The notes beneath the pieces are model-generated. The model searched no databases. It was not told where the DNA came from and worked only from the letters and a program-made list of their open reading frames with translations. DNA of 64,000 nt, taken from assembly GCA_964187785.1 (NCBI GenBank), contig OZ076409.1, positions 72,542,001-72,606,000 on the forward strand, read 5' to 3'. Positions 3,732-63,809 of this stretch are shown piece by piece. This DNA is from Amphiscolops sp. MND2022 (Eukaryota). A program made the translations under genes and the position numbers. How positions within the stretch are numbered: the first letter of the stretch is position 1; every line of letters begins with the position of its first letter.

Positions 3732-3781
3732 TGTGATAGCCTTTTCAGTTGGCCTTGTGTCAACTTGGGAAGGCTATCACA
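3732..3781 (+). other. Internal hairpin type I (representative copy)
   Basis: TGTGATAGCCTTTTCAGTTGGC-CTTGT-GTCAACTTGGGAAGGCTATCACA; also at 1164-1211, 6487-6531, 63349-63392 and in every 2-kb unit. Confidence 0.85.
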
Positions 3782-4105
3782 TCACAAAACCATCAACAAA
3801 GATAATTTTTGTTTATTGGATCTTACAGTCGATACTTTTTTTCGTGATTCTATACTACCGTTAGTATATTTCATCAGGTCACCTTACGATTGCATTCAGT
3901 CTTTGATAAAAACCTATGAACTCAAAGTCACATTTATATATTTTTTTGCCAGAAAATAACATCAAAAATATCTAAAATATATAAAATAGAGTCTTTAACA
4001 TTTTTACGTTTCAAGTTTTTGCCGTTATTAGGCCAATCAACGTCCTAGAGCCACATCCTGTCATACTGTACAACGCCACATAGTGTTGCGACGTTCACGG
4101 TCTGT

Positions 4106-4125
4106 GGGCATGCCGAGGCATGCCC
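4106..4125. promoter_or_regulatory. 20-bp palindrome matching the p53-family response element (representative copy; one per unit)
   Basis: GGGCATGCCG+AGGCATGCCC matches 2x RRRCWWGYYY at 19 of 20 positions with no spacer. It is present in all 25 complete units, 52-58 bp before the junction in the copies measured. Binding is not shown. Confidence 0.5.
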
Positions 4126-4177
4126 TTCGACGACGTATGCCGAATACCGCGGGCCTACGCCCGCGCTCCCCGGCTAG

Positions 4178-5451
4178 GTGGTCGTTAGCATGGGATTTTC
4201 TTTATGAGCGTAGTCCACTTTTTTTAGGCCGGGGTAGGGTCCCGGGCCGTTACCAATTTCTTACGGAGGAAAAATGTGAAAATCTGCGAGTTTAAAAAAT
4301 TGGCCCGTACGATTTGGCTGAAAATTGGCATACAGCATCGTCTTGGGAAACAAATGACTTTGTCCTAGTGTCATTTTGCCCAGAAAATTCAAAAAGTTGG
4401 TCAAATTGAAAATTTTTTGTCCGTCCAAGGCAAAAATTTGACTTTTTCGCTTTTTTTGGCCAATTTTCTCAGAATTGGTTGATTTTGGTGCAGTGAGTCA
4501 TAAGAGGTTATGAGGTCTGCAAGTAGCCATCAATCGGCTTGCATAATCAGATTTTGTCAAAAGTGTTTAGTTTTTTCAAAAATTCACACTTTTTTTTATT
4601 TCAATGTTTTTTGATACACTTTATTGAATTTTTTCTAAGTTTCACTAAATTTTTTAAAAATGTTTTAAAACACTATTTTTGCACGTTTTTGATGTTTTAC
4701 GCTCTCCCATATAGGTTTTCGCATACGGGGAACCTGAATCTGGCAACGAAATAACTATTTTCTGCAGTTCAACTTTCGCCATTTTTAATGGTTGAAAAAT
4801 CACTCATTTTCAACCTAACGAGTGAAAATATCAGAATTTAAAAACATAAAGTTGAGTTTAAGGAGACTTACAGGTGGAAACAAATGCTCAGAAACAAATA
4901 GATTTCTTGTATTAGCCAAAGAAAGCCTTTAAAATTCTTTTTACTTTCTTTAAATCAAAATTCAACTATTTTTAGGAAATTTGGCAGTGAAAAAAATTTA
5001 TAATTTTTAAATAAAAAACTTGCTTTGTTGGTCATTTGAGTTTGTCATTATTATCTGTGTAATTCACCAACACGTTTCAATTATTTTGACCCAATTTGAA
5101 AATTTTTGATACTGCATAATCTATCCGAGAGAACGAAACAGTTGTGTACATTCCATCTCCCTCCTGGGGGAGATGAGAATGTACTTGCCAAAGTCCAGGT
5201 ACTACAGACCATATTTGTTTTTATGCGACGCCGTCTATACTTGTGCACATGAATACAAATTGTTTGTCTGAATTTTACTTCTGACTTGACGTATGCTGTA
5301 CGTTTGGTACTGACAATACCCATCATATACATAACAAGCGTCAACGCCACATACCCTTACCAACGCCCATAGTCCGTAGGCATGCCGAGGCATGCCTTTC
5401 GACGACGCGCGCCAAACACAAGCGCGCCCGCACTTTTGCGGTAGCGGCTAG
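4178..5451 (+). mobile_element. Unit 2, unique body (1274 bp)
   Basis: Body not alignable by eye to the 2-kb family. It keeps head stem GGCCGGGG-TAGGGT-CCCGGGCC (4227-4248), type II hairpin (5146-5184), variant palindrome AGGCATGCCGAGGCATGCCT (5378-5397) and tail CCGCA-CTTT-TGCGG-TAGCGGCTAG. Confidence 0.6.
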
Positions 5452-6839
5452 GTGGTTGGGGCGGTCCCCAGAACGCACAAGGAGGCGCGGGGAGGGTCCT
5501 GCGCCGACATAGAATAATTTCATATAATACTAGTATCCTACATGGGTGTTTTAGAGGCGATTTTGGAATCTAACCGTAGGATTTGGATAATTTTTTGCAT
5601 GCGGCCATAACTCGAAATTCTAAGAACTTTTTCCTACTGTCATTTTCCCCGCAAATTGTTTTTTGTTGACTTATGGCCGAAAAACCGGAAATAACGTCCT
5701 TTTTAGACGTTATATCCGAAGTGTCGTCATAACTTTTTTCCAGGGCATGCTAGCGTTCTCGTTCACTTTTACACTTAGTTGCAGCATCTCAAAATACAAC
5801 TGGTGGAAAATTTTGGTTGCATTCGGATCACCCCCCATCGAGATAGAAGGGTTCCCCCCTCCAATTTTACCCCCCAAATTTGCAAAAGAGCCAATTTTGA
5901 GCATGAAGCCGAGGATTTAGCGTACCCGCACCCTCCTGATGTTTTGCTGTACGTATTGGGGTCAATCTGACGACATGTGTGGTTTTCACCCCCAACCCCC
6001 CCTTGGACCGGAAATGACACTTTTTTGTGTTTTTGGCAGAATTTAGCCTTTTTCATTATTAGGCAGTCGTTTTAGGGACTCCTAGCAGGATATCGAAATT
6101 GAAATACAACCTGATCACAACCCAGTTACAACATGTTGGCCACTTGGAGGTATCATCATGACCGGAAGTGGGGTCAACCCCCCTTTTTGTGACCGCTTTT
6201 TGACCTTGTGCCCCAAAATGCCAACATCTTGAGGCCTAATGAGGCATTCAAATCTGTACAAAGATAAAATGTTAGACAACCGAAGTCCCGGAAGATCTTT
6301 AGCATATACCGGAAGTTACCCCCCATGACCGGAAGTTACCCAATGTGACCGGAAATGGTCCAAAAAATAATGTAAAGTTGAATTTTTCACTATTTCAAGA
6401 CCACTTAATTGAAACTTTTCAATCTCAAAACTAGCGTACTGGCTTGTTTTGCTGAATTTATGGAAATTGGTGAGCTCTATCGCCCCCGATAGCCTTCGAA
6501 GTTGACCTTGCGTCAACTTTGGAGGCTATCGATAAAGAAAAATGAACAACAAAGTACATTGTTGCTCTCGTTTTTTTCCCGTTGTTTTTCCTCAAACATT
6601 CTTGAGACATATACATGGCCGTTAGTTGAAATCAATATTTAGCCCATGTTATAGCTGGAGCAGCGAAGCGTTACACAGACTAGTGTGGTTTTGAAATCAC
6701 ACTATTTAAATTAACAACTGACCGTCTTAGTCAACTCCACACATTCATACCAACGCCCACCGTCTGTGGGCATGCCGAGGCATGCCCTTCGACGACGTAT
6801 GACGAATCCACTCCAACGACACCCGCAGTCCTCAGCTAG
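5452..6839 (+). mobile_element. Unit 3, 1.39-kb family (1388 bp); near-identical to unit 15
   Basis: Distinct body with CCGGAAG/A motifs; head GGGG-CGGT-CCCC and GGCGCGGG-GAGGGT-CCTGCGCC; type I hairpin 6487-6531; conserved tail palindrome 6768-6787. Confidence 0.6.
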
Positions 6840-8821
6840 GTGGGCGGGGGTAATTCCCCTTCAAAAAATTCGGCCGGCGGGTTGGGTCCTGCCGGACGTC
6901 AAATAGTGTGAAACATCCAGTAGGAAACGGCGACATTTATCAGCGATTTTAAAATTTAACCGTTAGAATTCGGACTTGGAGTGCATGCGGCCCCAAAATG
7001 CCCATACGAATGGAAGTTCCTGCTGACGTTAAGCGACAAAAACACTTTATAAAAAGTTATGGCCCATTTTACGTTCACTTAGAGAGGTAAAATGAGGAAA
7101 ATTTTAACAAAGTTGCTGATAACTCAAAATACATTAATTTTTGGACTTTGACTGTGAAACAAGCTTGGAACCTTCATTTCGTGGCTGTGGCATTGCACTG
7201 AACACAAAAGATGTAAAGTTTTCACATTTTTTGAAAATTCGACATTTTTGAATTTTTTTCACTACTATCAGTACACTATATGTCAAAAACACCTCTGAAA
7301 AAATTTTTTGTTTGCTTAAATTTAGAAACCTCGGTATCCATGGTTTCTGTCGGAACCTACTCGCAGCCAAACACTCAACAGTTTGCATCCAATGTGAAAA
7401 TAAAATTTTTTTTGGGGTCATAAGCGTTTCACAAGGATTTCTCAACTTAGTATTAATTTACAAAATGGTCATTTTGAACACAATATTTTCATCGAGGCTT
7501 GTCGGCTATAGCCTTAATGTTCTAGAACGGTCCTACTGGCAACGTAGGAACCATTTATAGTAATAGAAAGTTTTAAAAAAATTTTTTCATCCGGTCTTCA
7601 GTCATTTTTCAGTCATTCGGAACTTAACTTAGAAAAATTTCGACCAAAATACCCATTTTTTGTCAGGTCGAAAATTCAAATTCAGATTTTTAAGCAAAAT
7701 TATTAACTCTGACGTAACCCATGGGGCCCATGATACTCAAAACAACGATTGACACTGGTATCAATGGCTCCAATAACATATGAGTCGCGATAAGACGTTA
7801 TTTTGAACAATACGTCTCAATTGAGGTAAAGATCTCGCAAGCCAGCGATCACTGTGAAATGTGATTTCATCAAAAATTTACTCATTTTTGTCAATCACTA
7901 TGTGCACAGAATGCGTAGGGTGCGTTTCAGCACTATAATGAGGTTTTTGAATGCATCGAGTAGCTCAAGGGGTGGTATGAGACATTTTTGTCCCATATAC
8001 TTCTGTATTTTCCAAAATTTTTAGCCCAATATCTGGAAATACAAACATGACAAACAACTTTCAACTACTTTATTCAAAGGTTACAATATAGATGAACACT
8101 GTGGTTGATCAGAAACTTTCATCTCTTTCGTTTTCCGAAATATTTCCCTTCGCATGTGTTACATTTGTAGCAGAAAAAAAATCGATACTGAAAAATACGC
8201 TATTTTGCTAATATAGAATCGCAATGATTGTGCCTAAAAACTCTTTCAACACTTCTAGCGCGACCTTACGCACCCAAAATTATCGAAAATGCTATTCACA
8301 ATGGTGACATGTGCTCTTTCAACGATCCTGACTGAACAATTTTCGCAAATTATTCAAGTACCTGTTAACTGAATCTCGTGATAGCCTTTTAAGTTGGCCT
8401 TGCGTCAACTTGGGAAGGCTATCACATCAAAAAATTTCCAACAAAAATACTTTTTGTTTATTGGAAATGACAGTCGATATATAATTTCGTGATTCTATAC
8501 TACCGTTAGTACCTTCCATTAAGTCACCTGACGATTGCATTCAGTCTTTGATAAATACCTATGAACTCGAAGTCATATTTATAAATTTTTTGCCAAAAAT
8601 AAACATCAAAATTATCCAAATTAATTAAAAATGAGTCTTTAAAGTTTTTGTTTTTCTTTTTTTACTGTTATTAGGCCCATCAACTTCCTACAGCCACGCT
8701 CTCTGTCATTAGTACAACACCACATAGTGTAGCGACGTTCATGGTCTGTGGGCATGCCGAGGCATGCCCTTCGACGACGTATGCCGAATACCGCGGGCCT
8801 ACGCCCGCGCTCCCCGGCTAG
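6840..8821 (+). mobile_element. Unit 4, ~2-kb family (1982 bp)
   Basis: Junction to junction and colinear with unit 1; head variant ...CCCCTTCAAAAAATTCGG shared with units 8 and 14. Confidence 0.6.
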
Positions 8822-10802
8822 GTGGGCGGGGGTAATTCCCCAACAAAAATTACGGCCGGCGGGTTGGGTCCTGCCGGACGTCAAATAGCAAAGAATATCT
8901 AGTAGGAAACGGCGACACAGAATCGCGATTTTTAAATCTAACCACAATTTTTTGGACTTGGAGTGCATGCGGCCCTGAAATGCCCATACGAATCGAAGTT
9001 CCTGCTGACGTTAAGCGATTGAAATAATATATAAAAAGTTATGGCCCATTTTTCACTCACATAGAAGGGTAAAATGAGGAAATTTTTAACAAAGTCGCTG
9101 ATAACTCAAAATGTGTTAATTTTTGGACATTGACTGTGAAACAAGCTTGGAACCTTCATTTCGTGGCTGTGGCATTGCACTGAACACAAAAGATGTAAAG
9201 TTTTTACATTTTTTGAAAATTCGACATTTTTGAAATTTTTTTCACTACTATCAGTACCCCATATGTCAAAAACGCTTCAGAAAAAATTTTTTATTTGCTT
9301 TAAATTGGAAACCTTGGTATCCATGATTTCTGTCGGAACCTACTCGCAGCCAAACACTCAACAGTTTGCATCCAATGTGAAAATTAAATTTTTTTCGGGG
9401 TCATAAGCGTTTCACAAGGATTTCTCAACTTAGTATTAATTTACAAAATGGTCATTTTGAACACAAGATTTTCATCAAGGCTTGTCGGCTATAGCCTTAA
9501 TGTTCTAGAACGGTCCCACTGGCAACGTAGGAACCATTTATAGTAATAGAAATTTTTAAAAATTTTTTTCACCCGTTCTTCCATCATTTTTCAGTCATTC
9601 GGAACTTATCTTAGAAAAATTTCGACCAAAATACCCATTTTTTGTCAGGTCGAAAATTCAAATTCAGCTTTTTAAGCAAAATTATTAACTCTGACGTAAC
9701 CCATGGGGCCCATGATACTCAAAACAACGATTGACACTGGTATCAATGGCTCCAATAACATATGAGTCGCGATAAGACGTTATTTTGAGCAATACGTCTC
9801 AATTGAGGTAAACATCTCGCAAGCCTGGGATCACAGTGAAATGTAAATTCATCAAAAATTTACTCATTTTTGTCAATCACTATGTGCACAGAGTGCGTAG
9901 GGTGAGTTCCAGCACTATAATGAGATTTTTGAAGGCATCGGGTTGCTCAAGGGGTGGTATGAGACATTTTTTTCTATATACTACTGTATTTTCCAAAACT
10001 TTTAGCCCATTATCTGGAAAAACTAACTTGACAAAATACTTTCAATGATTTTATTCAAAGGCTACAATGTAGATGAACCCAGTGGTTGATCAGAATCTTT
10101 CATCTCTTTCGTTTTCCGAAATATTTCCCTTCGCATGTGTTACATTTGTAGCAGAAAAAAATCGAAACTGAAAAATACGCTATTTTGCTTATATAGAATC
10201 GCAATGATTGTGCCTAAAAACTCTTTAAACACTTCTAACGCGACCTTACGCACCCAAAATGATCAAAAATGCTATTCACAATGGTGACATGTGCTCTTTC
10301 AACGATCCTGACTGAACAATTTTCGCAAATTATTCAAGTACCTGTTAACTGAATCTCGTGATAGCCTTTTAAGTTGGCCTTGTGTCAACTTGGGAAGGCT
10401 ATCACATCAAAAAATTTTCAACAAAAATACTTTTTGTTTATTGGAAATGACAGTCGATATATAATTTCGTGATTCTATACTACCGTTAGTACCTTCCATT
10501 AAGTCACCTGACGATTGCTTTCAGTCTTTGATAAATACCTATGAACTCGAAGTCTTATTTATTAATTTTGTGCTAAAAATAAACATCAAAACTATCCAAA
10601 TTATTTAAAATTGAGTCTTTACCGTTTTTGTTTTTCTTTTTCTACTGTTATTAGGCTCATCAACTTCCTACAGCCACGCTCTCTGTCATACTGTACAACG
10701 CCACATAGTGTTGCGACGTGCACAGTCTGTGGGCATGCCGAGGCATGCCCTTCGACGACGTATGCCGAATACCGCGGGCATACGCCCGCGCTCCCCGGCT
10801 AG
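8822..10802 (+). mobile_element. Unit 5, ~2-kb family (1981 bp)
   Basis: Junction to junction; head variant ...GTCAAATAGCAAAGAATATC shared with units 6, 10, 18, 22, 23. Confidence 0.6.
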
Positions 10803-12787
10803 GTGGGCGGGGGTAATTCCCCAACAAAAATTACGGCCGGCGGGTTGGGTCCTGCCGGACGTCAAATAGCAAAGAATATCTAGTAGGAAACGGCGACACA
10901 GAATCGCGATTTTTAAATCTAACCACAATTTTTTGGACTTGGAGTGCATGCGGCCCTGAAATGCCCATACGAATCGAAGTTCCTGCTGACGTTAAGCGAT
11001 TGAAATAATATATAAAAAGTTATGGCCCATTTTTCGCTCACAAAGAAGGGTAAAATGAGGAAATTTTTAACAAAGTCGCTGATAACTCAAAATGTGTTAA
11101 TTTTTGGACATTGACGGTGAAACAAGCTCGGAACCTTCATTTCGTGGCTGTGGCATTGCACTGAACACAAAAGATGTAAAGTTTTTACATTTTTTGAAAA
11201 TTCGAAATTTTTGAAATTTTTTTCACTACTATCAGTACCCCATATGTCAAAAACGCCTCAGAAAAATTTTTTTATTTGCTTTAAATTGGAAACCTTGGTA
11301 TCCATGGTTTCTGTCGGATCCTACTCGCAGTCAAACACCCAACAGTTTGCATCCAATGTGGAAATAAAAAATTTTTCGGGGTCATAAGCGTTTCACAAGG
11401 ATTTCTCAACTTAGTTTCAATTTACAAATTGGTCACATTGAACACATTATTTTCATCGAAGCGCGTCAGATACCGCCCTAAAGCTCACGAACGGTCCTAC
11501 TGGCAACGTAGCAACCATTTATAGTAATATAAAAGATTAAAAAAATTTTTTCACCCGGTCTTCAGTCATTTTTCAGTCATTCGGAACTTAACTTAGAAAA
11601 ATTTCGACCGAAATATCCATTTTTTGTCAGGTCGAAAAATCAAATTCAGATTTTTAAGCAAAATTATTAACTCTGACGTAACTCATGGGGCCCATGATAC
11701 TCAAAACAACGATTGACACTGGTATCAATGGCTCCAATAACATATGAGCCGCGATCGGACGTTATTTTGAGCAATACGTCTCAATTGAGGTAAAGATCTC
11801 GCAAGCCAGCGATCACTGTCAAATGTGATTTCATCAAAAATTTACTCATTTTTGTCAATCATTATGTGCACAGAATGCGTAGGGTGCGTTTCAGCACTAT
11901 AATGAGATTTTTCAATGCATCGAGTTGCTCAAGGGGTGGTACGAGACATTTTTGTCCCATATACTACTGTATTTTCCAAAATTTTTAGCCCAATATCTGG
12001 AAATACAAACTTGACAAAATACTTTCAACTACTTTATTCAAAGGTTACAATATAGATGAACACTGTGGTTGATCAGAAACTTTCATCTCTTTCGTTTTCC
12101 GAAATATTTTCCTTCGCATGTGTTATATTTGTATCAGAAAAAAAATCGAAACTGAAAAATACGCTATTTTGCTAATATAGAATCGCAATGATTGTGCCTA
12201 AAAACTCCTTAAACACTTCTAACGCAACCTTACGCACCCAAAATGATCGAAAATGCTATTCACAATGGTGACATGTGCTCTTTCAACGATCCTGGCTGGA
12301 CAAGGTTTGCATATTTTTCAAGTACCTGTCAGCTGAATCTTGTGATAGCCTTTTAAGTTGGCCTTGTGTCAACTTGGGAAGGCTATCACATCAAACAACC
12401 ATCAACAAAAACAATTTTTGTTTATTGGATATTACAGTTGATACCTTATTTCGTGATTCTATACTACCGTTAGTATATTCCATGAGGTCACCTTACGATT
12501 GCATTCAGACTTTGATGAAAACCTATGAACTCAAAGTCACATTTATATATTTTTTGCCCAAAAAAATCATCAAAAACATCTAATATATATAAAATTGAGT
12601 CTTTAACTTTTTTACGTTTCAAGTTTCGGCCGTTATTAGGCCAATCAACTTCCTACAGCCACGCTCTCTGTCATACTGTACAACGCCACATAGTGTTGCG
12701 ACGTGCACGGTCTGTGGGCATGCCGAGGCATGCCCTTCGACGACGTATGCCGAATACCGCGGGCCTACGCCCGCGCTCCCCGGCTAG
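10803..12787 (+). mobile_element. Unit 6, ~2-kb family (1985 bp); near-identical to unit 18
   Basis: Shares diagnostic variants with 42365-44349 (AAGCTCGGAACC, GGATCCTACTCGCAGTC, GCGCGTCAGATAC, GCGATCGGACG). Confidence 0.6.
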
Positions 12788-15023
12788 GTGGGCGGGGGTA
12801 ATTCCCCAACTAAAAAATCGGCCGGCGGGTAGGGTCCTGCCGGCCGTCCAAAATCAAAAATATACTAGTAGAAAACGGCCGGTCAAACGAGCTATTTTTT
12901 TATTTAACCGTTAGAATTTGGGTTTAGATTGCATGCGGCCATGAAATGGCCATACGAATCGAAGTTCCTGCTGACGTTTTGCGATTGAAACACTTTATAA
13001 AAAGTTATGGCCAATTTGTCATTCACCTAGAAGGGCAAAATGAGGAAAATTTTAACAAAGTCACTGATAACTCAAAATGTAATAATTTTTGGACTTTGAC
13101 AGTGATACAAGCTTGGAACTGTCATTTCGTGGCTGTGGCATTGCACTGAACACAAAAGATGTAAAGTTTTCACATTTTTTGAAAATTCGACATTTTTGAA
13201 TTTTTTTTCACTACTATCAGTACACTATATGTCAAAAACGCCTCTGAAAAAAATTTTTATTTGCTTAAAATTAGAAACCTTGGTATCCATGGTTTCCGTC
13301 AGTACCTACTCGCCGCCAAACGCTCAACAGTTTGCATTCAATGTGAAAATATAATTTTTTTCGAGGTCATAGGTGTTTCACAAGGATTTCTCAACTTAGT
13401 ATCTATTTACAAATTGGTCATTTTGAACACATTATTTTCATCGAAGCGTGTCAGATACCACCCTAATGCTCACGAATGGGCCTACTGGCAACGTTGGAAC
13501 CATTTTTAGTAATAGAAAGTATTAAAAAAATATTTTCACCCGGTCTTCAGTCATTTTTCAGACATTCGGTACTTAACTTAGAAAAATTTCGCATCAAAAA
13601 CCCATATTTGGTAGGGTCGAAATTTGAAATTCAGTTTTTTATGCAAAATTATTAACTCTGACGTAACCAGTGGAGCCCATGATACTCAAAAACACGATTG
13701 GGACTGGTATCAGTGGCTCCAATAACATATGAGCCGCGATAAGACGTTATTCAGAGCAAACGCTCTAAATCGAAGTAAACATCTCTGAAGCCTGGGATCA
13801 CAGTGAAATGTGATATCACCAAAAGTTTACTCTTTTTTGTCAATCACTATGTACACAGAGTGCGTAGGGTGAGTTTCAGGACTATAATGAGGTTTTTGAA
13901 GTAATCGCGCTGCTCAAGGGGTGGTATGAGACTATTTTTTCCCATATACTACTACATTTCCATAAATTTGCAGTCCATTGTCCTGGAAAGATAACTTCAC
14001 AAAAACAATTTTTCTACTCTATTCAGTTATTAGAATAAAGTTGAACACTGTGGTTGATCAGAAATGCTCAATTCTTTTGGTTTTTAAAAAAATTCCTTCG
14101 CATTCGTTACATTTGTGGAAGGAAGGTTATCAGTAGCTCCAAAAAAAAACGAAATTTAGCACGAACAGACATGCAACGATGCAAAGCAAAAACGTTTTTA
14201 CAACTTCCGACGTCATTATTTTACCCAAGAAGTTCGAAAATATCATTCGCAATGCTGTCATTCGCTATATATACGATCGCGGTCTATTTACAAACATTTA
14301 GATTTCATTGTTCTGCTTGAAAACCAATTTTTGTCAGGTCGAAATTTTAAATTTTGCCTGGGGAGCAATACCCTTCACGCTGAAGTAAACAGTGGGGCCC
14401 AAGTTACTCAAAAACAAGAAAGAGACTGCTACAATATGTCCTAATAACATATGGACCACGATAGTACGTTTTTCACACAAAAAACTCTCATCCGAAGTAA
14501 ATATGTTGAAAGCTTTTAATCACCGTGAGAAGTGATTTCATCAAAAAATAACTCTTTTTTGTCAATCACTATTTACACAGAATTTGTAAAGTTAGTTTGA
14601 GTCATGAAATGAGGCTTTACCGTAATATGGGTTGCTCAAGGTGTTATATAAGACAAAAACTTCCTCTTTTCTACTAGCTTCTTCAAATATTTCAACCCTT
14701 TGTCACAATAAGTTAATATTCAAAATCTCTTTGAAATGTATCTTTATGTTGGGGTGAAGTCTAAGAACAATAACTATGATCGAAGAATGCTAGTACTGGT
14801 GTTTGAACCATGTCCGGATGAACAAATCACAAAATCATCAAAAAATTGTTCCCTTTTTTGGTTATTTTGGCAGTACTAAAAATGTTAGCCGATAAATAAT
14901 TTTTTCGATGGCACCATTGGATTCCTCTCAAAAAGTTGGTTATATGACCTGTGTAATAACCCCGTATCTTTTCAATTTAAATATATTTAAAAAGCCAACT
15001 ATTTTGACCAAAATCCTAAAAAT

Positions 15024-16365
15024 CATACCATTTCCTAAAAATTTTCAAATGCACCCCATTTGACGTATAAGATAAGCACAGAAAACTATCATATACCGAT
15101 CAACTCTACTCCTATTGTAGATTATTAGAATTTTGTTAAGAATGAATTTTGATGAATATTAAAAAAATTTTGAACCCTCCAAAAATGGGCCAAAATTACA
15201 CGAAAAAATTGACCTTAAAATACCAAAATGTCAAAAAATCATCAAAACCCAGGCTTCTTGGGGTTCTATCAACTCCGCGTGGTCCACAGAGTATGCTAAA
15301 ACAGGTTTTACCCGTTTTTGAGCAATATGTGAAAAAGCCGACATTTTTGGGAAAGAAAAACATACCATTTCCTAAAAAAATTCAAATGCACGTCATTTGC
15401 CGTATTAGAATAGCACAGAAAACTATCACATACCAATCAACTCTACTTTTATTGCAGATGAACAGAATTTTGTTTAGAATAAATTTTACCGGATAATAAA
15501 AAAATTTGAATCCTTCAAAAATGGGCCAAAAATACACGAAAAAATGGACCTTAAAAATTTAAAATGTCAAAAAATCATCAAAACAACAGCTTCTTGGGGT
15601 TCTATCAACTCCACGAGGTCCACAGAGTATGCTAAAACAGGTTTTACCCGTTTTTGAGCAATATGTGAAAAAGCCGACATTTTTGGGAAAGAAAAACATA
15701 CCATTTCCTAAAAAAATTCAAATGCACGCCATTTGCCGTATGAAAATAGCACAGAAAACTATCACATACCAATCAACTCTACTTTCATTGCAGATGAACA
15801 GAATTTTGTTTAGAATAAACTTTACCGGATAATAAAAAAATTTGATTCCTTCTAAAATGGGCCAAAATTACACGAAAAAATGGACCTTAAAATTTTAAAA
15901 TGTCAAAAAATCATCAAAACCACGGCTTCTTGGGGTTCTATCAACTCCACGTGGTCCACAGAGTATGCTTAACCCGGTTTTACCCATCTTTGAGCAAAAT
16001 GTGAAAATACCGACATTTTTGGAAAAGAAAAACATGCCATTTTCTAATAAATTTCAAATGCACGCCATTTGCTGTATGAGAATTACACAGAAAGCTGTCA
16101 CATACCGATCAACTCTACTTCCATTGTAGATTATCAGAAGTTTGTTTAGAATAAATTTTGAAGGATAATAAAAAAATTTGAATCCATCAAAAATGGGCCA
16201 AAATTACACGAAAAAATTGACCTTAAAATATCAAAATGTCAAAAAATCATCAAAACCACAATTTCTTGGCGTTCTATCAACTCCATATGATACCAAACCA
16301 GGTACTGCCAATCGTTTGAGTTATAATAAAAAAACGTCTTTTTTGGCAAGAATTCCATACCATAA
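15024..16365 (+). repeat. Internal tandem repeat, ~4 x 336 bp (unit 7)
   Basis: CATACCATTTCCTAAAA anchor at 15024, 15361, 15697 and 16033; last copy degenerate. Confidence 0.9.
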
Positions 16366-16574
16366 ATAATAATCATGTTCCATATAAGAAGCGAATCATT
16401 TCAGATATATACCCTGTTCATTTTTTTAATATTACCGATTATTAATTTAATAGATGTTTTGAATGTGAGCTTCCTAAAAGGTTTAGGTGTGATGATACGT
16501 AAATAGAACCTTAGTTTCATCGAAATCTCAATTGAATATGTCCAATCTTAACCATCAGATAACAAGAAACACTT

Positions 16575-52100: not shown

Positions 52101-53879
52101 AACTCTACTTCTATTGTAGATTATCAGATTTTTGTTTAGAACAAACTTTTATGGATATAAAAAATTTTTAAACCCTCCAAAAATGAGCCAAAATAACACG
52201 AAAAAATGGACCCTAAATTTTTAAAATGTCAAAAAATTATCCAAACCACAGCTTCTTGGGGTTCTATCAGCTCCACATGGTCCACAGAGTATGCTAAAAC
52301 AGGTTTTGCCCGTTTTTGAGCAGTATATGAAAAAGCCGACATTTTTGGGGAAGAAAAACATACCATTTCCTAAATAATTTCAAATGCAGGCAATTTGCCG
52401 TATGAGAGTAGCACAGAAAACTATCACACACCGATCAACTCTACTTCTTTTGTAGATTATCAGAATTATGTTTAGAGTAAAGTTTTATGGATATGAAAAA
52501 TTTTTATACCCTCCAAAAATGGGCCAAAATGACACGAAAAAATTGACCTCAAATTTTTAAAATGTCAAAAAATTATCCAAACCACAGCGTCTTGGCGTTC
52601 TATCAACTCCAAATGACCTTCAGAGTATACCAAACCAGGTATTGCCAATCTTTTGAGCAATATTTAAAAACACCGACTATTTGGCAAGAACACCATAATA
52701 TGTTCCATATAAGAAGTGAATCATTCCACATATATACCCGGTCTAATATTTCCAAATTAGCGATAACATTTATACATGATGGTTTTTGAAAGTGAGCTTC
52801 ATAAGAGGTTGAGATGTAATAATACGTAAATGGACCCTAAGTTTCATTGAAATCTCAATGGAATACGTCCAATCAACTTCAATCCTAACTATTATATAAC
52901 AAAAAACACTTGAGTACATTCCATCTCCCCATCGGGGGAGATGAGAATGTACTTTTCAAAAGCCAAAAACTTCGAATTTTAAATCTTTTGTAACATTGTA
53001 TGTGACTGTTGAAACGATGAACGAATGAAAATGCTTCTAGTACCTTCATCAATTTTTGCTTCAGCTCCTATTTCTGCAGAACAAAACCAAAAGACACACT
53101 TACAGCAGTTAAGTTCGATTGTATAACTCAGTGAGTAAAGGTATGACTGAGGAAGTTCACAAGTTGTTTCAAAAGTTTCCGGCCTTCCAAAATCATGAAA
53201 CGTCCACACAACCAAGATAGCAAGTGAAAGAATGCTGAATGCACCTTATTAGATGAGATAAATAATGTGTGGAACTTGCCATTATCTCAAGATGACGTTG
53301 ATTTATGATCTTTTAAGGATAGTTCGATATGTGACCACAATAGTGGAAAACTTATTACTATTTGAAGAACACCGTGGAAAGCGTTCAGAAAGGACAGTAT
53401 ATTTGTTTCGAGCATGCATGCGTGTGTTCCTTTGGTGACGTTAGCTTAGTGTACATGACGGAGGTATTCGAGAGATTATGATAGAGTTTACTCACAAGTC
53501 TTTGTTTTTTTAAACTTTCTATGCCGTTGAGTACATTCGTAAGGTACATCCATCCCCTTCTCTGGGAATGTACGTTTGCCAAATGACTGTCATCCAAAAT
53601 TCGTAATCCGGACGAGTTTAACTACATAAACATGTGATGAGCGTTTTCAATTCACAACCGAATAACATTTTTTTTCTCGAAAATGATGATGGTTTTGATT
53701 TTGATGTCTTCTACTTTTATCATCATGCAAACGACCTTACCATGTCTCTCTTCTGTCGTCATTTGTACAACGCCACATAGCGTTCCGACGCCCACCGTCT
53801 GTGGGCATGCCGAGGCATGCCCTTCGACGACGTATGCCAAATGAGCCATACCCGCACTCTGGAGTGCGGTAGCGGCTAG
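49116..53879 (+). mobile_element. Unit 20, long family, chimeric (4764 bp): unit-16-like 5' kb plus L2 body
   Basis: Matches unit 16 up to ~50110, then unit 13; type II hairpin 52913-52953. Confidence 0.6.
51352..52695 (+). repeat. Internal tandem repeat, ~4 x 336 bp (unit 20)
   Basis: Same monomer series as unit 13. Confidence 0.9.
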
Positions 53880-55867
53880 GTGGGCGGGGGTAATTCCCCA
53901 ACAAAAATTACGGCCGGCGGGTTGGGTCCTGCCGGACGTTCAAATAGCGCGAAGCATCTAGTAGAAAACAAGGAGTCCTGAAACAGCGATTTTAAAATTG
54001 AACCGTTAGAATTTGGTTTTAGATTGCATGCGGCCCTGAAATCCCCATACGAATGGAAGTTCCTGCTGGCGTTAAGCGATTGAAATAATATATAAAAAGT
54101 TATGGCCCATTTTTGGGTCACCGAGAAGGTCAAAATGAAGAAAATTTTAACTAAGTTGCTGATAACTCAAAATGTGTTAATTTTTGGACTTTGACTGTGA
54201 AACAAGCTTGGAACCTTCATTTCGTGGCTGTGGCATTGCACTGAACACAAAAGATGTAAAGTTTTCACATTTTTTGAAAATTCGACATTTTTGAATTTTT
54301 TTTCACTACTATCAGTACACTATATGTCAAAAACACCTCTGAAAAATTTTTTTATTTGCTTAAATTTAGAAACCTCGGTATCCATGGTTTCCGTCAGTAC
54401 CTACTCGCTGCCAAACACTCAACAGTTTGCATCCAATGTGAAAATAAATTTTTTTTCGAGGTCTTAGGTGTTTCACAAGGATTTCTCAACTTAGTATCAA
54501 TTTACAAATTGGTCATTTTGAACACATTATTTTCATCGAAGCGTGTCATATACCGCCCTAATGCTCACGAACGGGCCTACTGGCAACGTTGGAACCATTT
54601 ATAGTAATAAAAAGTTTTAAAAAATTTTTTTCACCCCGTCTTCAGTCATTTTACACACTTTCGGAACTTAACTTAGAAAAATTTCAACCAAAAACCCATT
54701 TTTTGTCAAGTCGAAAATTCAAATTCAGCTTTTTAAGCAAAATAAATAAATCTGACATAACCAGTGGGGCCCATGAAACTCAAAACCACGATTGAGACTG
54801 GTATCAATGGCTCCAATAACATATGAGTCGCGATAAGACGCTATTTTGAGCAAAACATCTCAATTGAGGTAAAGATCTCGCAAGCCAGCGATCACTGTGA
54901 AATGTGATTTCATCAAAAATTTACTCTTTTTTGTCAATCACTATGTGCACAGAATGCGTAGGGTGCGTTTCAGCACTATAATGAGGTTTTTGAAGGCATC
55001 GAGTTGCTCAAGGGGTGGTATGAGACATTTTTGTCCCATATACTACTGTAGTTTCCAAAATTTTTACCCCATTATCTGGAAATACAAACTTGACAAAATA
55101 CTTTCAACTACTTTATTCCAAGGTTACAATATAGATGAACACTGTGGTTGATAAGAAACTTTCATCTCTTTCGTTTTCGGAAATATTTCCGTTCGCATGT
55201 GTTACATTCATAGCAGAAAAAAAATCGAAACTGAAAAATACGCTATTTTGCTGATATAGAATCGCAATGATTGTGCCTAAAAACTCTTTAAACACTTCTA
55301 ACGCAACCTTACGCACCAAAAATGATCGAAAATGCTATTCACAATGGTGACATGTGCTCTTTCTACGATCCTGGCTGGACAAGGTTTGCATATTTTTCAA
55401 GTACCTGTCAGCTAAATCTTGTGATAGCCTTTTCAGTTGGCCTTGTGTCAACTTGGGAAGGCTATCACATCAAAAAACCATCAACAAAAATAATTTTTGT
55501 TTATTGGATCTTACAGTCGATACTTTTTTTCGTGATTCTATACTACCGTTAGTATATTTCATCATGTCACCTTACGATTGCATTCAGTCTTTGATAAAAA
55601 CCTATGAACTCAAAGTCACATTTATATATTTTTTTGCCAGAAAATAACATCAAAAATATATAAAATATATAAAATAGAGTCTTTAACATTTTTACGTTTC
55701 AAGTTTTTGCCGTTATTAGGCCAATCAACGTCCTAGAGCCACATCCTGCCACATACTGTACAACGCCACATAGTGTTGCGACGTGCACAGTCTGTGGGCA
55801 TGCCGAGGCATGCCCTTCGACGACGTATGCCGAATACCGCGGGCCTACGCCCGCGCTCCCCGGCTAG
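53880..55867 (+). mobile_element. Unit 21, ~2-kb family (1988 bp); near-identical to unit 1
   Basis: Same diagnostic head and body as units 1/11/17. Confidence 0.6.
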
Positions 55868-57861
55868 GTGGGCGGGGGTAATTCCCCAACAAAAATTACG
55901 GCCGGCGGGTTGGGTCCTGCCGGACGTCAAATAGCAAAGAATATCTAGTAGGAAACGGCGACACAGAATCGCGATTTTTAAATCTAACCACAATTTTTTG
56001 GACTTGGAGTGCATGCGGCCCTGAAATGCCTATACGAATCGAAGTTCCTGCTGACGTTAAGCGATTGAAACAATATATAAAAAGTTATGGCCCATTTTTC
56101 ACTCACATAGAAGGGTAAAATGAGGAAATTTTTAACAAAGTCGCTGATAACTCAAAATGTGTTAATTTTTGGACATTGACTGTGAAACAAGCTTGGAACC
56201 TTCATTTCGTGGCTGTGGCATTGCACTGAACACAAAAGATGTAAAGTTTTTACATTTTTTGAAAATTCGACATTTTTGAAATTTTTTTCACTACTATCAG
56301 TACCCCATATGTCAAAAACGCCTCAGAAAAAAATTTTTCTTTGCTCAAATTTAGAAACCTCGGTATCCATGGTTTCTGTCGGAACCTACTCGCAGCCAAA
56401 CACTCACTAGTTTGCATCCAATGTGAAAATAAAATTTTTTTCGGGGTCATAAGCGTTTCACAAGGATTTCTCAACTTAGTATTATTTTACAAAATGGTCA
56501 TTTTGAACACAATATTTTCATCGAGGCTTGTCGGCTATAGCCTTAATGTTCTAGAACGGTCCCACTGGCAACGTAGGAACCATTTATAGAAATGGAAAGT
56601 AATAAAAAAATATTTTCACCCGGTCTTCAGTCATTTTTCAGTCATTAGGAACTTAACTTAGAAAAATTTCGACCAAAATACCCATTTTTTGTCAGGTCGA
56701 AAATTCAAATTCAGATTTTTAAGCAAAATTATTAACTCTGACGTAACCCATGGGGCCCATGATACTCAAAACAACGATTGACACTGGTATCAATGGCTCC
56801 AATAACATATGAGTCGCGATAAGACGTTATTTTGAGCAATACGTCTCAATTGAGGTAAAGATCTCGCAAGCCAGCGATCACTGTGAAATGTGATTTCATA
56901 AAAAATTTACTCATTTTTGTCAATCACTATGTGCACAGAATGCGTAGGGTGAGTTCCAGCACTATAATGAGGTTTTTGAAGGCATCGAGTTGCTCAAGGG
57001 GTGGTATGAGACATTTTTTCCCTATATACTACTGTATTTTCCAAAACTTTTACCCCATTATCTGGAGAAACTAACTTGACAAAATACTTGCAATAACTTT
57101 ATTTACAGGTTACAATGTAGATGAACCCTGTGGTTGATCAGAAACTCTCATCTCATTCGTTTTCCTGAATAATTCCCTTCGAATGTGTTACATTTGTAGC
57201 AGAAAAAAAACCGAACAAAAAAAATACGCGATTTTGCTGAGATAGAATCGCAATGGTTACGCCTAAAGTCTCTTTAAATACTTCTAACGCAACCTTACGG
57301 ACCCAAAAAGATTGAAAATGCCATTCACAATGCTGACATGTGCTCTTTCTACGATCCTGGCTTGACAAGTTTTGCATATTATTCAAGTACCTGTTAACTG
57401 AATTTTGTGATAGCCTTTCAAGTTGGCCTTGTGTCAACTTGGGAAGGCTATCACATCAAAAAACTTTCATCAAAAATACTTTTCGTTTAAACGATATTGT
57501 ATTCGATATTTATTTTCGTGATTTTACACTACCGCTAGTACCTTCCGCCAGGTCAGCTGACGATTGCAAGCAGCCTTTGTTAAAAACCTATGAACACCAA
57601 TATTTTTTCTCATACTTTTGTTGAAGAAAAGTACAAATAAACAATAAAAATATAATTTTTACCTTTAACAACACTAATTTGTCTTTATCGTTATCAGTCC
57701 TACCACCCATACCCATCATCATCCTATGCCATGGCCCGGTGATTAGTACAACGCCACATAGTGTAGCGACGCCCACAGTCTGTGGGCATGCCGAGGCATG
57801 CCCTTCGACGACGTATGCCAATTTTAGCGTAGCCCGCGGTCACTACCGCGGTAGCAGCTAG
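55868..57861 (+). mobile_element. Unit 22, ~2-kb family (1994 bp)
   Basis: Head like unit 5; tail like unit 9. Confidence 0.6.
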
Positions 57862-59846
57862 GTGGGCGGGGGTAATTCCCCAACAAAAATTACGGCCGGC
57901 GGGTTGGGTCCTGCCGGACGTCAAATAGCAAAGAATATCTAGTAGGAAACGGCGACACAGAATCGCGATTTTTAAATCTAACCACAATTTTTTGGACTTG
58001 GAGTGCATGCGGTCCTGAAATGCCCATACGAATCGAAGTTCCTGCTGACGTTAAGCGATTGAAATAATATATAAAAAGTTATGGCCCATTTTTCACTCAC
58101 ATAGAAGGGTAAAATGAGGAAATTTTTAACAAAGTCGTTGATAACTCAAAATGTGTTAATTTTTGGACATTGACTGTGAAACAAGCTTGGAACCTTCATT
58201 TCGTGGCTGTGGCATTGCACTGAACACAAAACATGTAAAGTTTTTACATTTTTTGAAAATTCGACATTTTTGAAATTTTTTTCACTACTATCGGTACCCC
58301 ATATGTCAAAAACGCCTCAGAAAATAATTTTTATTTGCTTTAAATTGGAAACCTTGGTATCCATGGTTTCTGTCGGAACCTACTCGCAGCCAAACACCCA
58401 ACAGTTTGCATCCAATGTGAAAATAAAAATTTTTTCGGGGTCATAAGCGTTTCACAAGGATTTCTCAACTTAGTATTAATTTAAAAAATGGTCATTTTGA
58501 ACACAATATTTTCATCGAGGCTTGTCGGCTATAGCCTTAATGTTCTAGAACAGTCCCACTGGCAACGTAGGAACCATTTATAGTAATAGCAAGTTTTAAA
58601 AAAATATTTTCACCCGGTCTTCAGTCATTTTTCAGTCATTCGGAACTTAACTTAGAAAAATTTCGACCAAAATACCCATTTTTTGTCAGGTCGAAAAATC
58701 AAATTCACATTTTTAAGCAAAATTATTAACTCTGACGTAACCCATGAGGCCCATAATACTCAAAACAACGATTGACACTGGTATCAATGGCTCCAATAAC
58801 ATATGAGTCGCGATAAGACGTTATTTTGAGCAATACGTCTCAATTGAGGTAAAGATCTCGCAAGCCAGCGATCACTGTGAAATGTGATTTCATCAAAAAT
58901 TTACTCATTTTTGTCAATCACTATGTGCAGAGAATGCGTAGGGTGCGTTTCAGCACTATAATGAGGTTTTTGAAGGCATCGAGTTGCTCAAGGGGTGGTA
59001 TGAGACACTTTTGTCCCATATACTACTGTATTTTCCAAATTTTTTAGCCCAATATCTGGAAATACAAATTAGACAAAATACTTTCAACTACTTTATTCAG
59101 AGGTTACAATATAGATGAACACTGTGGTTGATCAGAAACTTTCATCTCTTTCGTTTTCCGAAATTTTTCTCTTCGCATGTGTTACATTTGTAGCAGAAAA
59201 AAAAATCGATACTGAAAAATACGCTATTTTGCTAATATAGAATCGCAATGATTGTGTCTAAAAACTCTTTAAACACTTCTAACGCAACCTTACGCACCCA
59301 AAATGATCGAAAATGCTATTCACAATGGTGACATGTGCTCTTTCAACGATCCTGACTGAACAATTTTCGCAAATTATTCAAGTACCTGTTAACTGAATCT
59401 CGTGATAGCCTTTTAAGTTGGCCTTGTGTCAACTTTGGAAGGCTATCACATCAAAAAATTTGCAACAAAAATACATTTTGTTTATTGGAAATGACAGTCG
59501 ATGTATAATTTTGTGATTCTATACTACCGTTAGTACCTTCCATTAAGTCACCTGACGATTGCATTCAGTCTTTGATAAATACCTATGAACTCGAAGTCAT
59601 ATTTATAAATTTTGTGCTAAAAATAAACATAAAAATTATCCAAATTATTTAAAATTGAGTCTTTACCGTTTTTGTTTTTATTTTTCTACTGTTATTAGGC
59701 CCATCAACTTCCTACAGCCACGCTCTCTGTCATACCGTACAACGCCACATAGTGTTGCGACGTGCACAGTCTGTGGGCATGCCGAGGCATGCCCTTCGAC
59801 GACGTATGCCGAATACCGCGGGCCTACGCCCGCGCTCCCCGGCTAG
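57862..59846 (+). mobile_element. Unit 23, ~2-kb family (1985 bp)
   Basis: Junction to junction; 3' part like units 4/5/14. Confidence 0.6.
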
Positions 59847-61836
59847 GTGGGCGGGGGTAATTCCCCAACTAAAAAATCGGCCGGCGGGTCGGGTCCTGCC
59901 GGCCGTCCAAAATCAAAATCCTCCTAGTAGAAAACGGCCGGTCAAACGAGCTATTTTTTTATTTAACCGTTAGAATTTGGGTTTAGATTGCATGCGGCCA
60001 TGAAATGGCCATACGAATCGAAGTTCCTGCTGACGTTTTGCGATTGAAACACTTTATAAAAAGTTATGGCCAATTTGTCAGTCACCTAGAAGGGCAAAAT
60101 GAGGAAAATTTTAACAAAGTCGCTGATAACTCAAAATGTGATAATTTTTGGACTTTGACAGTGAAACAAGCTTGGAACTGTCATTTCGTGGCTGTGGCAT
60201 TGCACTGAACACAAAAGATGTAAAGTTTTCACATTTTTTGAAAATTCGACATTTTTGAAATTTTTTTCACTACTATCAGTACCCCATATGTCAAAAACAC
60301 CTCCGAAAAAAATTTTTATTTGCTTTAAATTGGAAACCTTGGTATCCATGGTTTCTGTCGGAACCTACTCGCAGCCAAACACCCAACAGTTTGCATCCAA
60401 TGTGAAATAAAAAATTTTTTCGAGGTCATAAGCGTTTCACAAGGTTTTCATGATTTAGTATTAAATTACATAGTGGTCATTTTAAACATAAAATTTTGGT
60501 CCAGGCATGTCGGATATAGTCTGAATGCTCACGAACGGTCCTACTGGCAACGTAGGAACCATTTATAGTAATAAAAAGTATTAAAAAATTTTTTTCACCC
60601 GGTCTCCAGTCATTTTTCAGACATTCGGAACTTAACTTAGAAAAATTTCGACCAAAATACCCATTTTTGTCAGGTCGAAAATTCAAATTCAGCTTTTTAG
60701 GCAAAATTATTAAATCTGACGTAACCAGTGGGGCCAATGAAACTCAAAACCGCAATAGACACTGGTATCAATGGCTCCAATAACATATGAGTCGCGATAA
60801 GACGTTATTTTGAGCAATACGTCTCAATTGAGGTAAACATCTCGCAAGCCTGGGATCACAGTGAAATGTAATTTCATCAAAAAATTACTCATTTTCGTCA
60901 ATCACTATGTGCATAGAGTGGGTAGGGTGAGTTCCAACACTATAATGAGGTTTTTGAAGGCATCGGGTTGCTCAAGGGGTGGTATGAGTCATTACTTTCC
61001 TATATACAACTGTATTTTCAAAAACTTTTAGCCCATTATCTGGAAAAACTAACTTGACAAAAGACTTTCAATTACTTTATTCAAAGGTTACAATATAGAT
61101 GAACACTGTGGTTGATCAGAAACTTTCATCTCTTTCGTTTTCCGAAATAACTCCTTTCAAATGTGTTACATTTGTAGCAGGAAAAAAAAACTGAAACTAA
61201 AAAATACGCGATTTTGCTGAGATAGAATCGCAATGGTTGGGCCTAAAATCTCTTTAAATACTTCTAACGCAACCTTACGGACCCAAAATGATTGAAAATG
61301 CCATTCACAATGCTGACATGTGCTCTTTCTACGATCCTGGCTGGACAAGTTTTGCATTTTTTTCAAGTACCTGTTAACTGAACATTGTGATAGCCTTTCA
61401 AGTTGGCCTTGTGTCAACTTGGGAAGGCTGTCACATCAAAAAACTGTCAACAAAAATACCATTTGTTTATAGGATATTGCTGTCGATGCTTCACTTCGTG
61501 ATTCGATCATGTCGTGAGTTCCTTCCATCAGGTCAGCTAACATTTGGATTCAGTGTTGGATAAGAACCTATGATTTTCATGACAATTTTAGTTCTTTTTT
61601 GCTAACAAAAAGTACGAATAAATGATATAAAACATATTTGTAACCTTTAGGAAGTTTAACTTTACCTTTATTTACCGTTACCATCGCCACCCACCCCCTA
61701 CGACCTCGCAGTGTCCTCATTACAACGCCACATAGTGTAGCGACGCCCACAGTCTGTGGGCATGCCGAGGCATGCCCTTCGACGACGTATGGCAAATATA
61801 GCGTTAGCCCGCGGTCACTACCGCGGTAGCAGCTAG
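59847..61836 (+). mobile_element. Unit 24, ~2-kb family (1990 bp) with a divergent 3' part
   Basis: Head like units 7/12/13; tail hairpin CCGCGGT-CACT-ACCGCGG. Confidence 0.6.
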
Positions 61837-63809
61837 GTGCGGGGGGGTAACCCCAACAAAAATTTTGGAGGATTCGGGTAGGGTCCTGAATCCGATTTTA
61901 ACTCTAATAGCTATCGATAGGAAATCTTGCAAAAATTTCGGGATCTCGTGATCTAACCATAGGATTTTAAAGTTGGAGCGGCCCCCACCAGATTTTCCGA
62001 AAATTAGCGCCCCCCACCGGGTTCCATACCCCGGAAAATTTTTTTCTGGCCACACGGGCGACCGTTAGGGGGTCATTTTAGGGGTAAAATTCATATTGGG
62101 CCACATAACTTTTTTTCTGTTGATTTAAAACTTTGGGACCCTGCTAAAAGTTTCTTGACCGTGTTGCAGGGGCCCCGGAGGTCCAAACCAAATTTTTCTA
62201 TCTTGAAGCTATCTCCAAGTACCCCCCCGCTCAAACCGTTATTTTCCCGGAAACGCAGGTTTTTGACCCGGAAGGAGTCGTCTGAGCGCGGGGTCGTTAG
62301 GTGATGTATTGGGGACGGCCTTGAGACGAAGTGGGGGACATGTAGTTTGCCAACCTCAATTTACCCCCCGGACGGGAAATGACCGTTATATGAGCGGGAA
62401 AAATGCCCCCCTCCACGTTTTACCGCTATTTCCGGTGTGAAGGAGTGGGAGTAGCGCGTCGGGTGCCATATATCAAAAGTAGGTTTAAACAAGGACCTAT
62501 CGGAAACATGTGGTTTGGGACCCCCTGGACCAACCCGTAAGCAGGAAATGGGGCTTCCGGCCCGTTTTTTTTACGGTTAAAAACGGAAAATGGGCATTGA
62601 GGGGTAAATATCTCGTGAACGCGTGGAGCTACGGTGTCCTTCACTACTACAAGGTTTCATACCCATGATATGGTGCCTTCAGGGGGGCAAACAGATTTCC
62701 GCTATCTATCACCGTTACCGACTTGGCCCCCCAGCCTAACCGCTATTTGACCGGAAATGTCAGTTTTTGAGCCCTAAGGGTCGGTCCGAGCGTGGCATCG
62801 TTAGGTAACTTATTGTATTACTCAATGAGACTAGTTGGGGGATATAGTTTCAGTCACCCCCCGTTACCCCTTGGGACCGGAAATGACCGTTATGTGGGTA
62901 AAATTGCAATTTTTGTACTTTTTGAAGGGCAATTAGGTGCGGAAGGAGTGGTAATAGGTGCTTGGACACTATTTGAGGTAAGGGAGGACGTGAGGCGAGC
63001 ATTCAGAAATAACCGTTATGATGACCCCAAAGTCCCCCTGGTACCGTAAACGACCGGAAATGGTCGAATTTTGTGTCTATTGAGTACAAATGTTTGGTGT
63101 TTTATGAATAAAAGTACCTATTAGGTGTTTCGACGGTTTGCAGTAGTGAACATAGTCATGAAACCTTGTGGGGGGTAACGGTATATAGCACCGGAATTCC
63201 GAACCGTTGGAGACAGGATATGTTTTTTGGTCTTAAAATGTCTTTCGGCGTACTTTTGTCGACTATTATGGACTATTTTTCAAAAATAAAGTTTTTCCAT
63301 ATAGTTTCAGAGACTCCGAAACCTCAAACAACATAACCGTTACCTTATGATAGCCTTTCAAGTTGGCCTGGTGTCAACTTGGAAGGGCTATCCTTCAAAA
63401 ATCGTTAATCAAGTGTGTTTTTGGGTATGTTTTTATCATTTTAGAATCAATTAGAGCTCCAAGAAAAGTTTGCCAACGACAAAAACTATGTCGTGATGAT
63501 TCCGTTATTAGAACGATGGTTAACAAAATGTTGATAAAGTTGATTTTTTACATTTCAAATGTGTCCTAAAAGCCAGAAAACCTCTTTACCAAAAAAATGG
63601 TATTGATTGAATTGTATATAACAGGTAATAAAAGTTCAAATTGATTATTACGTTTCATTATTCAAGCTAAAAATTCATAACATAGTTTAATTAACGTCAA
63701 CGCCACATACTTTACATCAACGCCCACTGTCTGTGGGCATGCCGAGGCATGCCCTTCGACGACGTATACCAAATACATACCCAAACGACGCCCGTACATG
63801 CCGGGCTAG
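61837..63809 (+). mobile_element. Unit 25, unrelated GC-richer body (1973 bp)
   Basis: Head GGGG-TAA-CCCC and GGATTCGGG-TAGGGT-CCTGAATCC; type I hairpin 63349-63392; invariant palindrome 63735-63754; ends GGGCTAG. Confidence 0.6.

Follow-up and report, generated by a model that had tools for sequence, protein, structure and literature searches.

IS91, a bacterial element with a Y2 transposase, leaves no target-site duplication (TSD), has different palindromes at its two ends, inserts at tetranucleotides related to its own terminal one and passes through circular intermediates (PMC13181058; this paper, like the others cited here, is drawn on in part). Canonical Helitrons lack both terminal inverted repeats (TIRs) and TSDs, place a hairpin a few bases before a terminal CTRR and occur joined head to tail (PMC5876387, PMC12001565). 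Single-strand origins are orientation-specific and lie mostly upstream of the double-strand origin (PMC4595007), and in banana bunchy top virus (BBTV) the primers start in the major common region, CR-M (PMC10653810). Here we analyze a 64,000-nt stretch of Amphiscolops sp. MND2022 DNA (contig OZ076409.1, positions 72,542,001 to 72,606,000; hereafter the window), which contains a mixed head-to-tail array of elements. Each of them carries one intact quasi-palindrome, of type I or type II, which lies in a fixed orientation in the right-hand part of the element and is inherited together with its right end.

Patterns for type I and for the outer arms of type II were matched against the window and against 100 shuffles of it. 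The type I pattern was found at 20 loci (19 complete units and, at 1166, a relic upstream of the array) and the type II pattern at 9 loci (6 intact hairpins and 3 decayed extra copies), with no match to either in the shuffles. Profile models, built partly from the copies that they scored, gave 47–64 bits for type I copies and 51–56 bits for intact type II copies, against best scores of 14.2 and 7.9 bits, respectively, over 30 shuffled windows. Both motifs had been proposed in a first reading of the DNA made from its letters (the sequence-only reading), and both stand where it placed them, far above the shuffled background. Its statement that no unit has both types or neither was confirmed: type I is present in 19 of the 25 complete units and intact type II in 6, and the two exceptional classes are empty. 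Using the profile models, we found no weak copy of the opposite type in any unit, and no hairpin copy outside a unit or relic within the window. The orientation is uniform, the + strand scoring 47–64 bits compared with 12–18 for the reverse reading. The stricter claim of exactly one hairpin per unit holds for the intact copies, but not for decayed ones, since all five long units retain the remains of a second type II.

All the features described here are on the + strand. The type I hairpin of the relic (U0) is located at 1166–1209 (pattern and profile model) and that of U1 at 3735–3778 (pattern and unit census). In U3, where the sequence-only reading had noted full pairing with two wobbles for 6487–6531, nucleotides 6488–6530 are indeed fully paired, with two G-T pairs and no bulge. 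The other type I copies, assigned by the unit census, are at 8380–8423 (U4), 10360–10403 (U5), 12344–12387 (U6), 19090–19133 (U8), 21072–21115 (U9), 23065–23108 (U10), 25051–25094 (U11), 36557–36600 (U14), 38036–38078 (U15), 39929–39972 (U16), 41920–41963 (U17), 43906–43949 (U18), 55423–55466 (U21), 57409–57452 (U22), 59404–59447 (U23), 61389–61432 (U24), and 63349–63392 (U25). Intact type II copies are found at 5146–5184 in U2 (306 nts before the right end) and 16577–16615 in U7 (973 nts before it), and, by pattern and unit census, at 29281–29319 (U12), 34050–34088 (U13), 48144–48181 (U19), and 52914–52952 (U20). Among the short units, which make up four lineages in the window, the intact hairpin precedes the right end by 306–461 nts. 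The decayed second type II lies 353–358 nts before the right end in 5/5 long units. In U13 (34667–34709), U19 (48762–48796), and U20 (53531–53573) it keeps both outer 8-mers and scores 7.7–9.6 bits, while in U7 (17197–17239) and U12 (29901–29943) it was missed by the profile model and identified by alignment to U13/U19. The flanks of the two type II copies in the long units are not significantly alike (p 0.11–0.26), which leaves an origin by segment duplication unsupported. An unpaired AAACA(G/C)T occurs just upstream of type II in U2 (5135–5145), in the long units (16566–16576 in U7), and in the outside homolog described below (556–566); the type II module may be longer than its stem.

The array extends from 2187 to 64000 and comprises 25 complete, non-coding units (U1–U25) plus the start of U26, bounded by 26 junctions of the form CTAG|GTG(G/C). 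The 8-base core of the first junction, GCTAGGTG (2186–2193), is identical at 26/26 junctions. The units fall into five families: 16 units of ~2 kb (83–99% identity), five of ~4.76 kb, U2 (1274 bp), U3/U15 (1388/1387 bp), and U25 (1973 bp). All of them have in common a left end of ~70 nts and a right end of ~120 nts, and none of the 25 complete units is truncated at an end. The near-identical copies (97–99%) U1/U11/U17/U21, U6/U18, U7/U12, and U13/U20 sit beside different neighbours; therefore, the array would have grown by insertion of single units, one by one, and not by block duplication. The relic upstream, which the sequence-only reading listed apart from the 2-kb units, aligns to the 2-kb family at 61–68% and is a diverged sibling of it. 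Its diverged right end (1484–1583; 72% to the long-unit right end) retains the palindrome through a two-sided change, and no CTAG terminus is seen. Overall, the units collapse to about six lineages, counting the outside homolog: type I is carried by the 2-kb family (the relic included), U3/U15, and U25, and type II by the long family, U2, and the homolog.

The comparison of families is informative about how the hairpin changes. U7, a long unit, aligns collinearly over its left 1.49 kb (12788–14278) to the 2-kb family of type I (83% identity to U1); the collinearity begins at the left end, extends to about base 1490, and breaks ~50 nts before the type I site, and the long right part has type II instead. 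The long and 2-kb families thus represent, as judged from their alignment, a natural hairpin swap, and the same left end would therefore work with either hairpin. Within the 2-kb family, the hairpin window has a mean identity of 97%, compared with 64–87% over most of the interval between it and the right end; values of 95–97% are also attained in places in the upstream body, so that the hairpin peak is local. Between the relic and U1 the hairpin is 91% identical, while the body remains at the 61–68% given above and the right end of the relic at 72%. The view of the hairpins as islands of conservation in non-alignable bodies is thus correct as regards the identity peak, but not as regards the bodies of the long and 2-kb families, which can be aligned over 1.49 kb. 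These comparisons point to an internal hairpin that can change more slowly than the ends of the element, as might be expected of a so far undescribed internal signal needed for spread. A hairpin that outlasts the right end would, in turn, argue for a reading factor that is not family-specific. Finally, the surplus type II copy of U13 no longer folds (z −0.18, compared with −6.07 for an intact copy). We read these observations as signs that selection acts on the hairpin in cis; by our weighting of the explanations discussed below, it very probably matters to the element in some way.

The same element anatomy is present in a second, independent assembly. A scan of a metagenome collection with the 18-base right-end palindrome returned 76 loci; a single one, L054 (OBOP01004400.1), proved to be a true homolog, the other 75 matching at the word only. 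In L054, a type II hairpin (567–605) is followed by a right end, by the junction CGAG|GTGC (883), and by the left end of a next unit; the distance from hairpin to right end (567 to 883, ~317 nts) is similar to that of the short units in the window. Its stem matches the window at all 16 core pairs, and one stem-base pair is changed on both sides. The bulged A, described as a constant of type II, is retained throughout the window but is a T in L054. Apart from the hairpin and the right end, the upstream body of L054 does not align to the window, save for a marginal match (E 0.014). The feature is thus real, constrained, and found in two assemblies. No locus was detected in the GTDB scans and no match in the plasmid and phage collections; some viral scans returned no locus, and others returned 43, 3, 7, and 4 loci with the searched word only, lacking the full hairpin or the ends. 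A sequencing run (X1, share 0.10) provided 51 contig pieces, 33 of them only partly on the stretch; one piece covers the type I hairpin of U3, differing at 8 of 151 bases. We judged these data too thin to use. Literature searches by motif sequence and by topic found no description of the family; they did not extend to Repbase, Dfam, and most subscription papers, so that an entry as "unclassified repeat" is possible.

Both hairpin types (39–44 nts, with stems of 17–22 bp) fold as RNA above shuffles on the + strand (z −2.5 to −7.4), as would any palindrome. In the nine type I variants, the first nine bases of the 5′ arm are invariant and positions 10–12 vary, the wobble changes being taken by the partner arm; this variable triplet is paired in all nine variants, mostly through G-T. 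The distinct non-Watson-Crick states amount to 7 G-T versus 1 A-C on the + strand. The left-end hairpin behaves in a similar way, with G-T retained on the + strand in 7/8 variants when its four top pairs are counted. These wobbles are indirect signs favouring a fold of the + strand.

The two ends of the elements are structured and differ from each other. The left end, exemplified by U1 (2191–2261), consists of a G-run/C-run hairpin followed by a second hairpin, in which the top is conserved and the outer stem is specific to each family. This outer stem has been rewritten with pairing kept in four families, as read from the variants; its alignment is out of register, which limits the formal pair count to the four top pairs. 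The right end of U1 (4061–4177) comprises two short direct motifs, an 8-bp palindrome, a variable terminal hairpin, and CTAG. A + strand hairpin precedes CTAG by 6–8 nts in the 2-kb and most long units; in U3 and U19 it is weak. The right-end palindrome has the loop CGAGG (4114–4118), the same word as the L054 junction (880–884) and one base off the CTAGG of the window. The motif CCGTTA recurs ~120 nts into the left ends (2311–2320), shortly before the right ends (4021–4027), and throughout U25 (61675–61682); it may be a Myb-type site, which it resembles. Altogether, we propose that the units are non-autonomous, TIR-less DNA elements with asymmetric structured ends, precisely joined at a short core and moved by an enzyme encoded elsewhere.

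Among the described systems, IS91 is a close counterpart. Imperfect palindromes are found near both ends here as well, and the pattern at the 26 junctions and the one flank, all from arrayed copies, is compatible with the rule of related target and terminal tetranucleotides without TSD. However, IS91 is bacterial and encodes its transposase, none of which was found here, and the part of PMC13181058 used mentions no internal hairpin. Canonical Helitrons are matched by the 3′ CTRR with its preceding hairpin; the same arrangement can be read from the left end on the − strand, and L054 has CGAG/CTCG instead. Their 5′ TC is absent: at each of the 25 internal junctions, CTAG is followed by GTG on the + strand, and by CC or CT on the − strand. 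In addition, neither a junction nor the sole outer flank reads A|T, the insertion site of these elements. Furthermore, the array mixes families in scrambled order, and an internal conserved module of Helitrons is not described in the portions of PMC5876387 and PMC12001565 that we cite. Helentrons and HINEs have subTIRs of 12–15 bp, T-rich ends, and a TT target (PMC4067079), whereas the junctions here are G-rich without a T run, and no 12-bp subTIR was seen by eye in the end alignments. [quoted passage not shown] The direct repeat that might correspond to theirs is GCTAG, which occurs both in the left flank and in all right ends; it may be a repeat or a target. Indeed, GCTAG is all that the left flank of the array (2179–2193) has in common with the right ends; this is the sole outer flank visible, the other boundary lying beyond the window, and target and terminus are indistinguishable in it. 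The ends would work like those of IS91 and Helitrons, yet the elements are neither canonical Helitrons nor Helentrons.

As for the internal hairpin, the nearest likeness is with single-strand origins and the babuvirus CR-M, which are orientation-fixed conserved islands located away from the nick and shared by otherwise unrelated circles (PMC4595007, PMC10653810). The orientation is fixed here too, and the hairpin lies upstream of the nick only if the + strand is displaced. The sso1 of ICEBs1 differs in having ~200 bp and three stem-loops (PMC4595007), compared with a single hairpin of 39–44 nts, and no sequence likeness is claimed. Helraiser needs double-stranded circles, the priming of which is left open in the portion of PMC5876387 cited. 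We favour, with a probability of roughly one in three, the reading in which the hairpin serves a rolling-circle-type element as a strand-specific, one-per-element signal in cis, perhaps as a site where the second strand is primed. The mobilizing enzyme would be a rolling-circle (HUH) nuclease using the logic of IS91. Since its target tetranucleotide would resemble the terminal one of the element itself, every resident junction would become a target and mixed arrays would accumulate, which would explain the scrambled order. The hairpin would fold on the + strand, be needed in cis, and be read by a factor shared among families; its function, in our ranking, would most likely be to signal complementary-strand synthesis on the displaced + strand circle. 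Types I and II would then represent two unrelated solutions to one task, either of which suffices. Because CTAG is palindromic, two strand assignments can be made. If the + strand is displaced, the right end would finish with CTAG. On the circle, the hairpin would then be found just upstream of the nick, the usual place of plasmid single-strand origins (PMC4595007), and on the strand favoured by the wobbles. If the − strand is nicked, the tetranucleotide would belong to the left end and the + strand would be the sense strand, which would suit an RNA hairpin.

A number of observations weigh against the priming site. The nicked strand could be the − strand, and the wobble bias would then be on the wrong strand for priming; in addition, the L054 joint reads CTCG on the − strand, which is the terIS word of IS91. 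IS91 itself inserts only as a single-stranded circle (PMC13181058, section 11), so that for an element like it the synthesis of a second strand could be dispensable. The 7:1 wobble bias of type I has a two-sided p of 0.07, type II is nearly strand-neutral in folding, the − strand often gives the better fold of the right ends, and substitutions in the shared body display no strand asymmetry. Covariation is not above shuffles for either type, as 93 of 500 shuffles match the observed score for type II and 120 of 500 for type I, with 16/17 and 12/19 pairs invariant, respectively; folding of the hairpins is thus not proven. In the long units the intact type II is 966–973 nts from the right end. The exclusivity of the two types rests on about six lineages and not on 25 units; by our arithmetic, six lineages each with exactly one type would be expected about once in 64 if the types were independently present half the time. 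Finally, a Pfam search with 110 frames (≥52 amino acids, from U0–U3, U7, U19, and U25–U26) gave one domain of unknown function (DUF) below the cut-off and no other match, hence no transposase, and no autonomous partner was found in any collection scanned; therefore, the chemistry proposed for the element is hypothetical. The idea of interchangeable cis-modules put forward in the sequence-only reading is supported by the natural swap, by the decay of the surplus copy, and by the independent L054, but it is limited by the small number of lineages and by the state of the folding evidence.

The − strand assignment leads to the possibility that the hairpins function as RNA, within a transcript of the + strand, either as a short-hairpin small-RNA precursor or as a processing, localization, or termination signal. 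This explanation is doubtful but deserves attention. It fits best if, as in IS91, the − strand is nicked and the + strand is sense, and it accommodates stems of 17–22 bp with G-U pairs on the + strand. In small-RNA precursors, the guide arm is held constant and the passenger arm is free to wobble, a pattern recalling the invariant 5′ arm of type I and its changing partner; moreover, primary sequence is held on both arms across two assemblies. Canonical microRNA precursors, as Drosha substrates, have a long basal stem below the ~22-bp duplex, whereas the continuous stems here end at 17–23 bp. No Rfam match was better than E 0.4 in the window (1–18000) or E 0.28 in L054, none of them near threshold, and if a small RNA acted in trans, there would be no need for each gene-less family to keep it. 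The invariance of most pairs, which means that sequence is conserved beyond pairing, together with the about equal folding of type II on both strands, would be expected if the hairpins were instead duplex-DNA binding sites, that is two inverted box pairs contacted by a dimeric or tetrameric host factor or transposase as an internal transposition enhancer with no need to fold. We regard this as unlikely, because the one-base offset of the 3′ arm of type II is kept though its letter changes from A to T, the central spacer has 5 or 6 bases, and pairing of the variable triplet of type I is preserved in all nine variants, mostly by G-T.

The 8-base junction core is asymmetric as well as invariant, and could be the strand-exchange region of Crypton-like tyrosine-recombinase substrates, the hairpin being an accessory or attC-like folded site. 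Cryptons have no TIRs and carry terminal direct repeats of 4–6 bp (PMC3212892), and some CryptonV families are target-specific (PMC8869645); a Crypton membership is, by these comparisons, compatible with the elements. We nevertheless consider it improbable. No recombinase was found, no constant inverted arms of 11–13 bp surround the core in the end alignments as judged by eye, animal Cryptons are reported without terminal repeats in the part of PMC3212892 used, and GCTAGGTG is absent from the terminal repeats in supplement 1 of that paper. The distance of 306–973 nts between the hairpins and the crossover also argues against this explanation. The hairpins of attC sites and of IS200/IS605 act at or beside the site of strand exchange, and the analogy drawn with them in the sequence-only reading is for this reason a poor fit. 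Least probable, in our opinion, is that the hairpin has no function in mobility and is a passenger, such as an old fragment of a miniature inverted-repeat transposable element (MITE) or a palindrome kept by conversion, its exclusivity reflecting two ancestral right-hand modules. It is true that the hairpin type travels with the right module, that only about six lineages are involved, and that U1 and U25 are weakly similar (61%) from the hairpin to the right end. However, conversion between arms preserves symmetry and not sequence, the hairpin is a local identity peak that surpasses even the right end of the relic, its position and orientation are fixed with no copy outside a unit or relic, and the surplus type II decayed while the other copy did not. 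Two further ideas were set aside. Mollusc Fanzor2 elements, considered with IS607, have TIRs and TSDs (PMC10711439) and the units have neither. The units run GT...AG like introns, but the end of L054 is GAG, and no prominent splice consensus could be recognized by eye.

Other features of the window are given here for completeness. It has 37% GC, and its longest reading frame with a start codon is of at most 129 amino acids. CpG is at an observed/expected ratio of 1.0, and CTAG occurs 89 times (26 of them at junctions) compared with 217 expected. The ~600 bases between the right end of the relic and the first junction (1590–2185) match neither the end models nor either hairpin. An internal repeat of 336 bp is present in U7 (15019–16285, 3.8 copies, ~90% alike) and in the other long units. 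In addition, a body segment of ~335 bp occurs twice in the long units (~70% alike) and also in the relic, as compared between 14320–14655, 3003–3338, and 446–759; its recurrence suggests that the type II right part derives from a distant relative of the 2-kb family.

It is conceivable, though on balance doubtful, that the array represents an undescribed class of eukaryotic single-strand transposons, combining IS91-like targeting of its own junctions, cassette-like mixed arrays, and an exchangeable second-strand signal (alternatively, a small RNA with sequence specificity) which a conserved host factor would read. If this is true, no internal cis-module would, as far as our literature searches show, have been defined before in a eukaryotic rolling-circle transposon. 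Two short, naturally swapped modules would offer a direct handle on how the displaced strand becomes double-stranded. Should the hairpins act as RNA, a transposon family carrying two alternative, sequence-fixed small hairpins would be unusual as well. With the four motifs, namely the left end, the right end, type I, and type II, the missing autonomous element could be sought precisely; its enzyme would assign a place to a family that falls short, at its termini, of both Helitrons and Helentrons.

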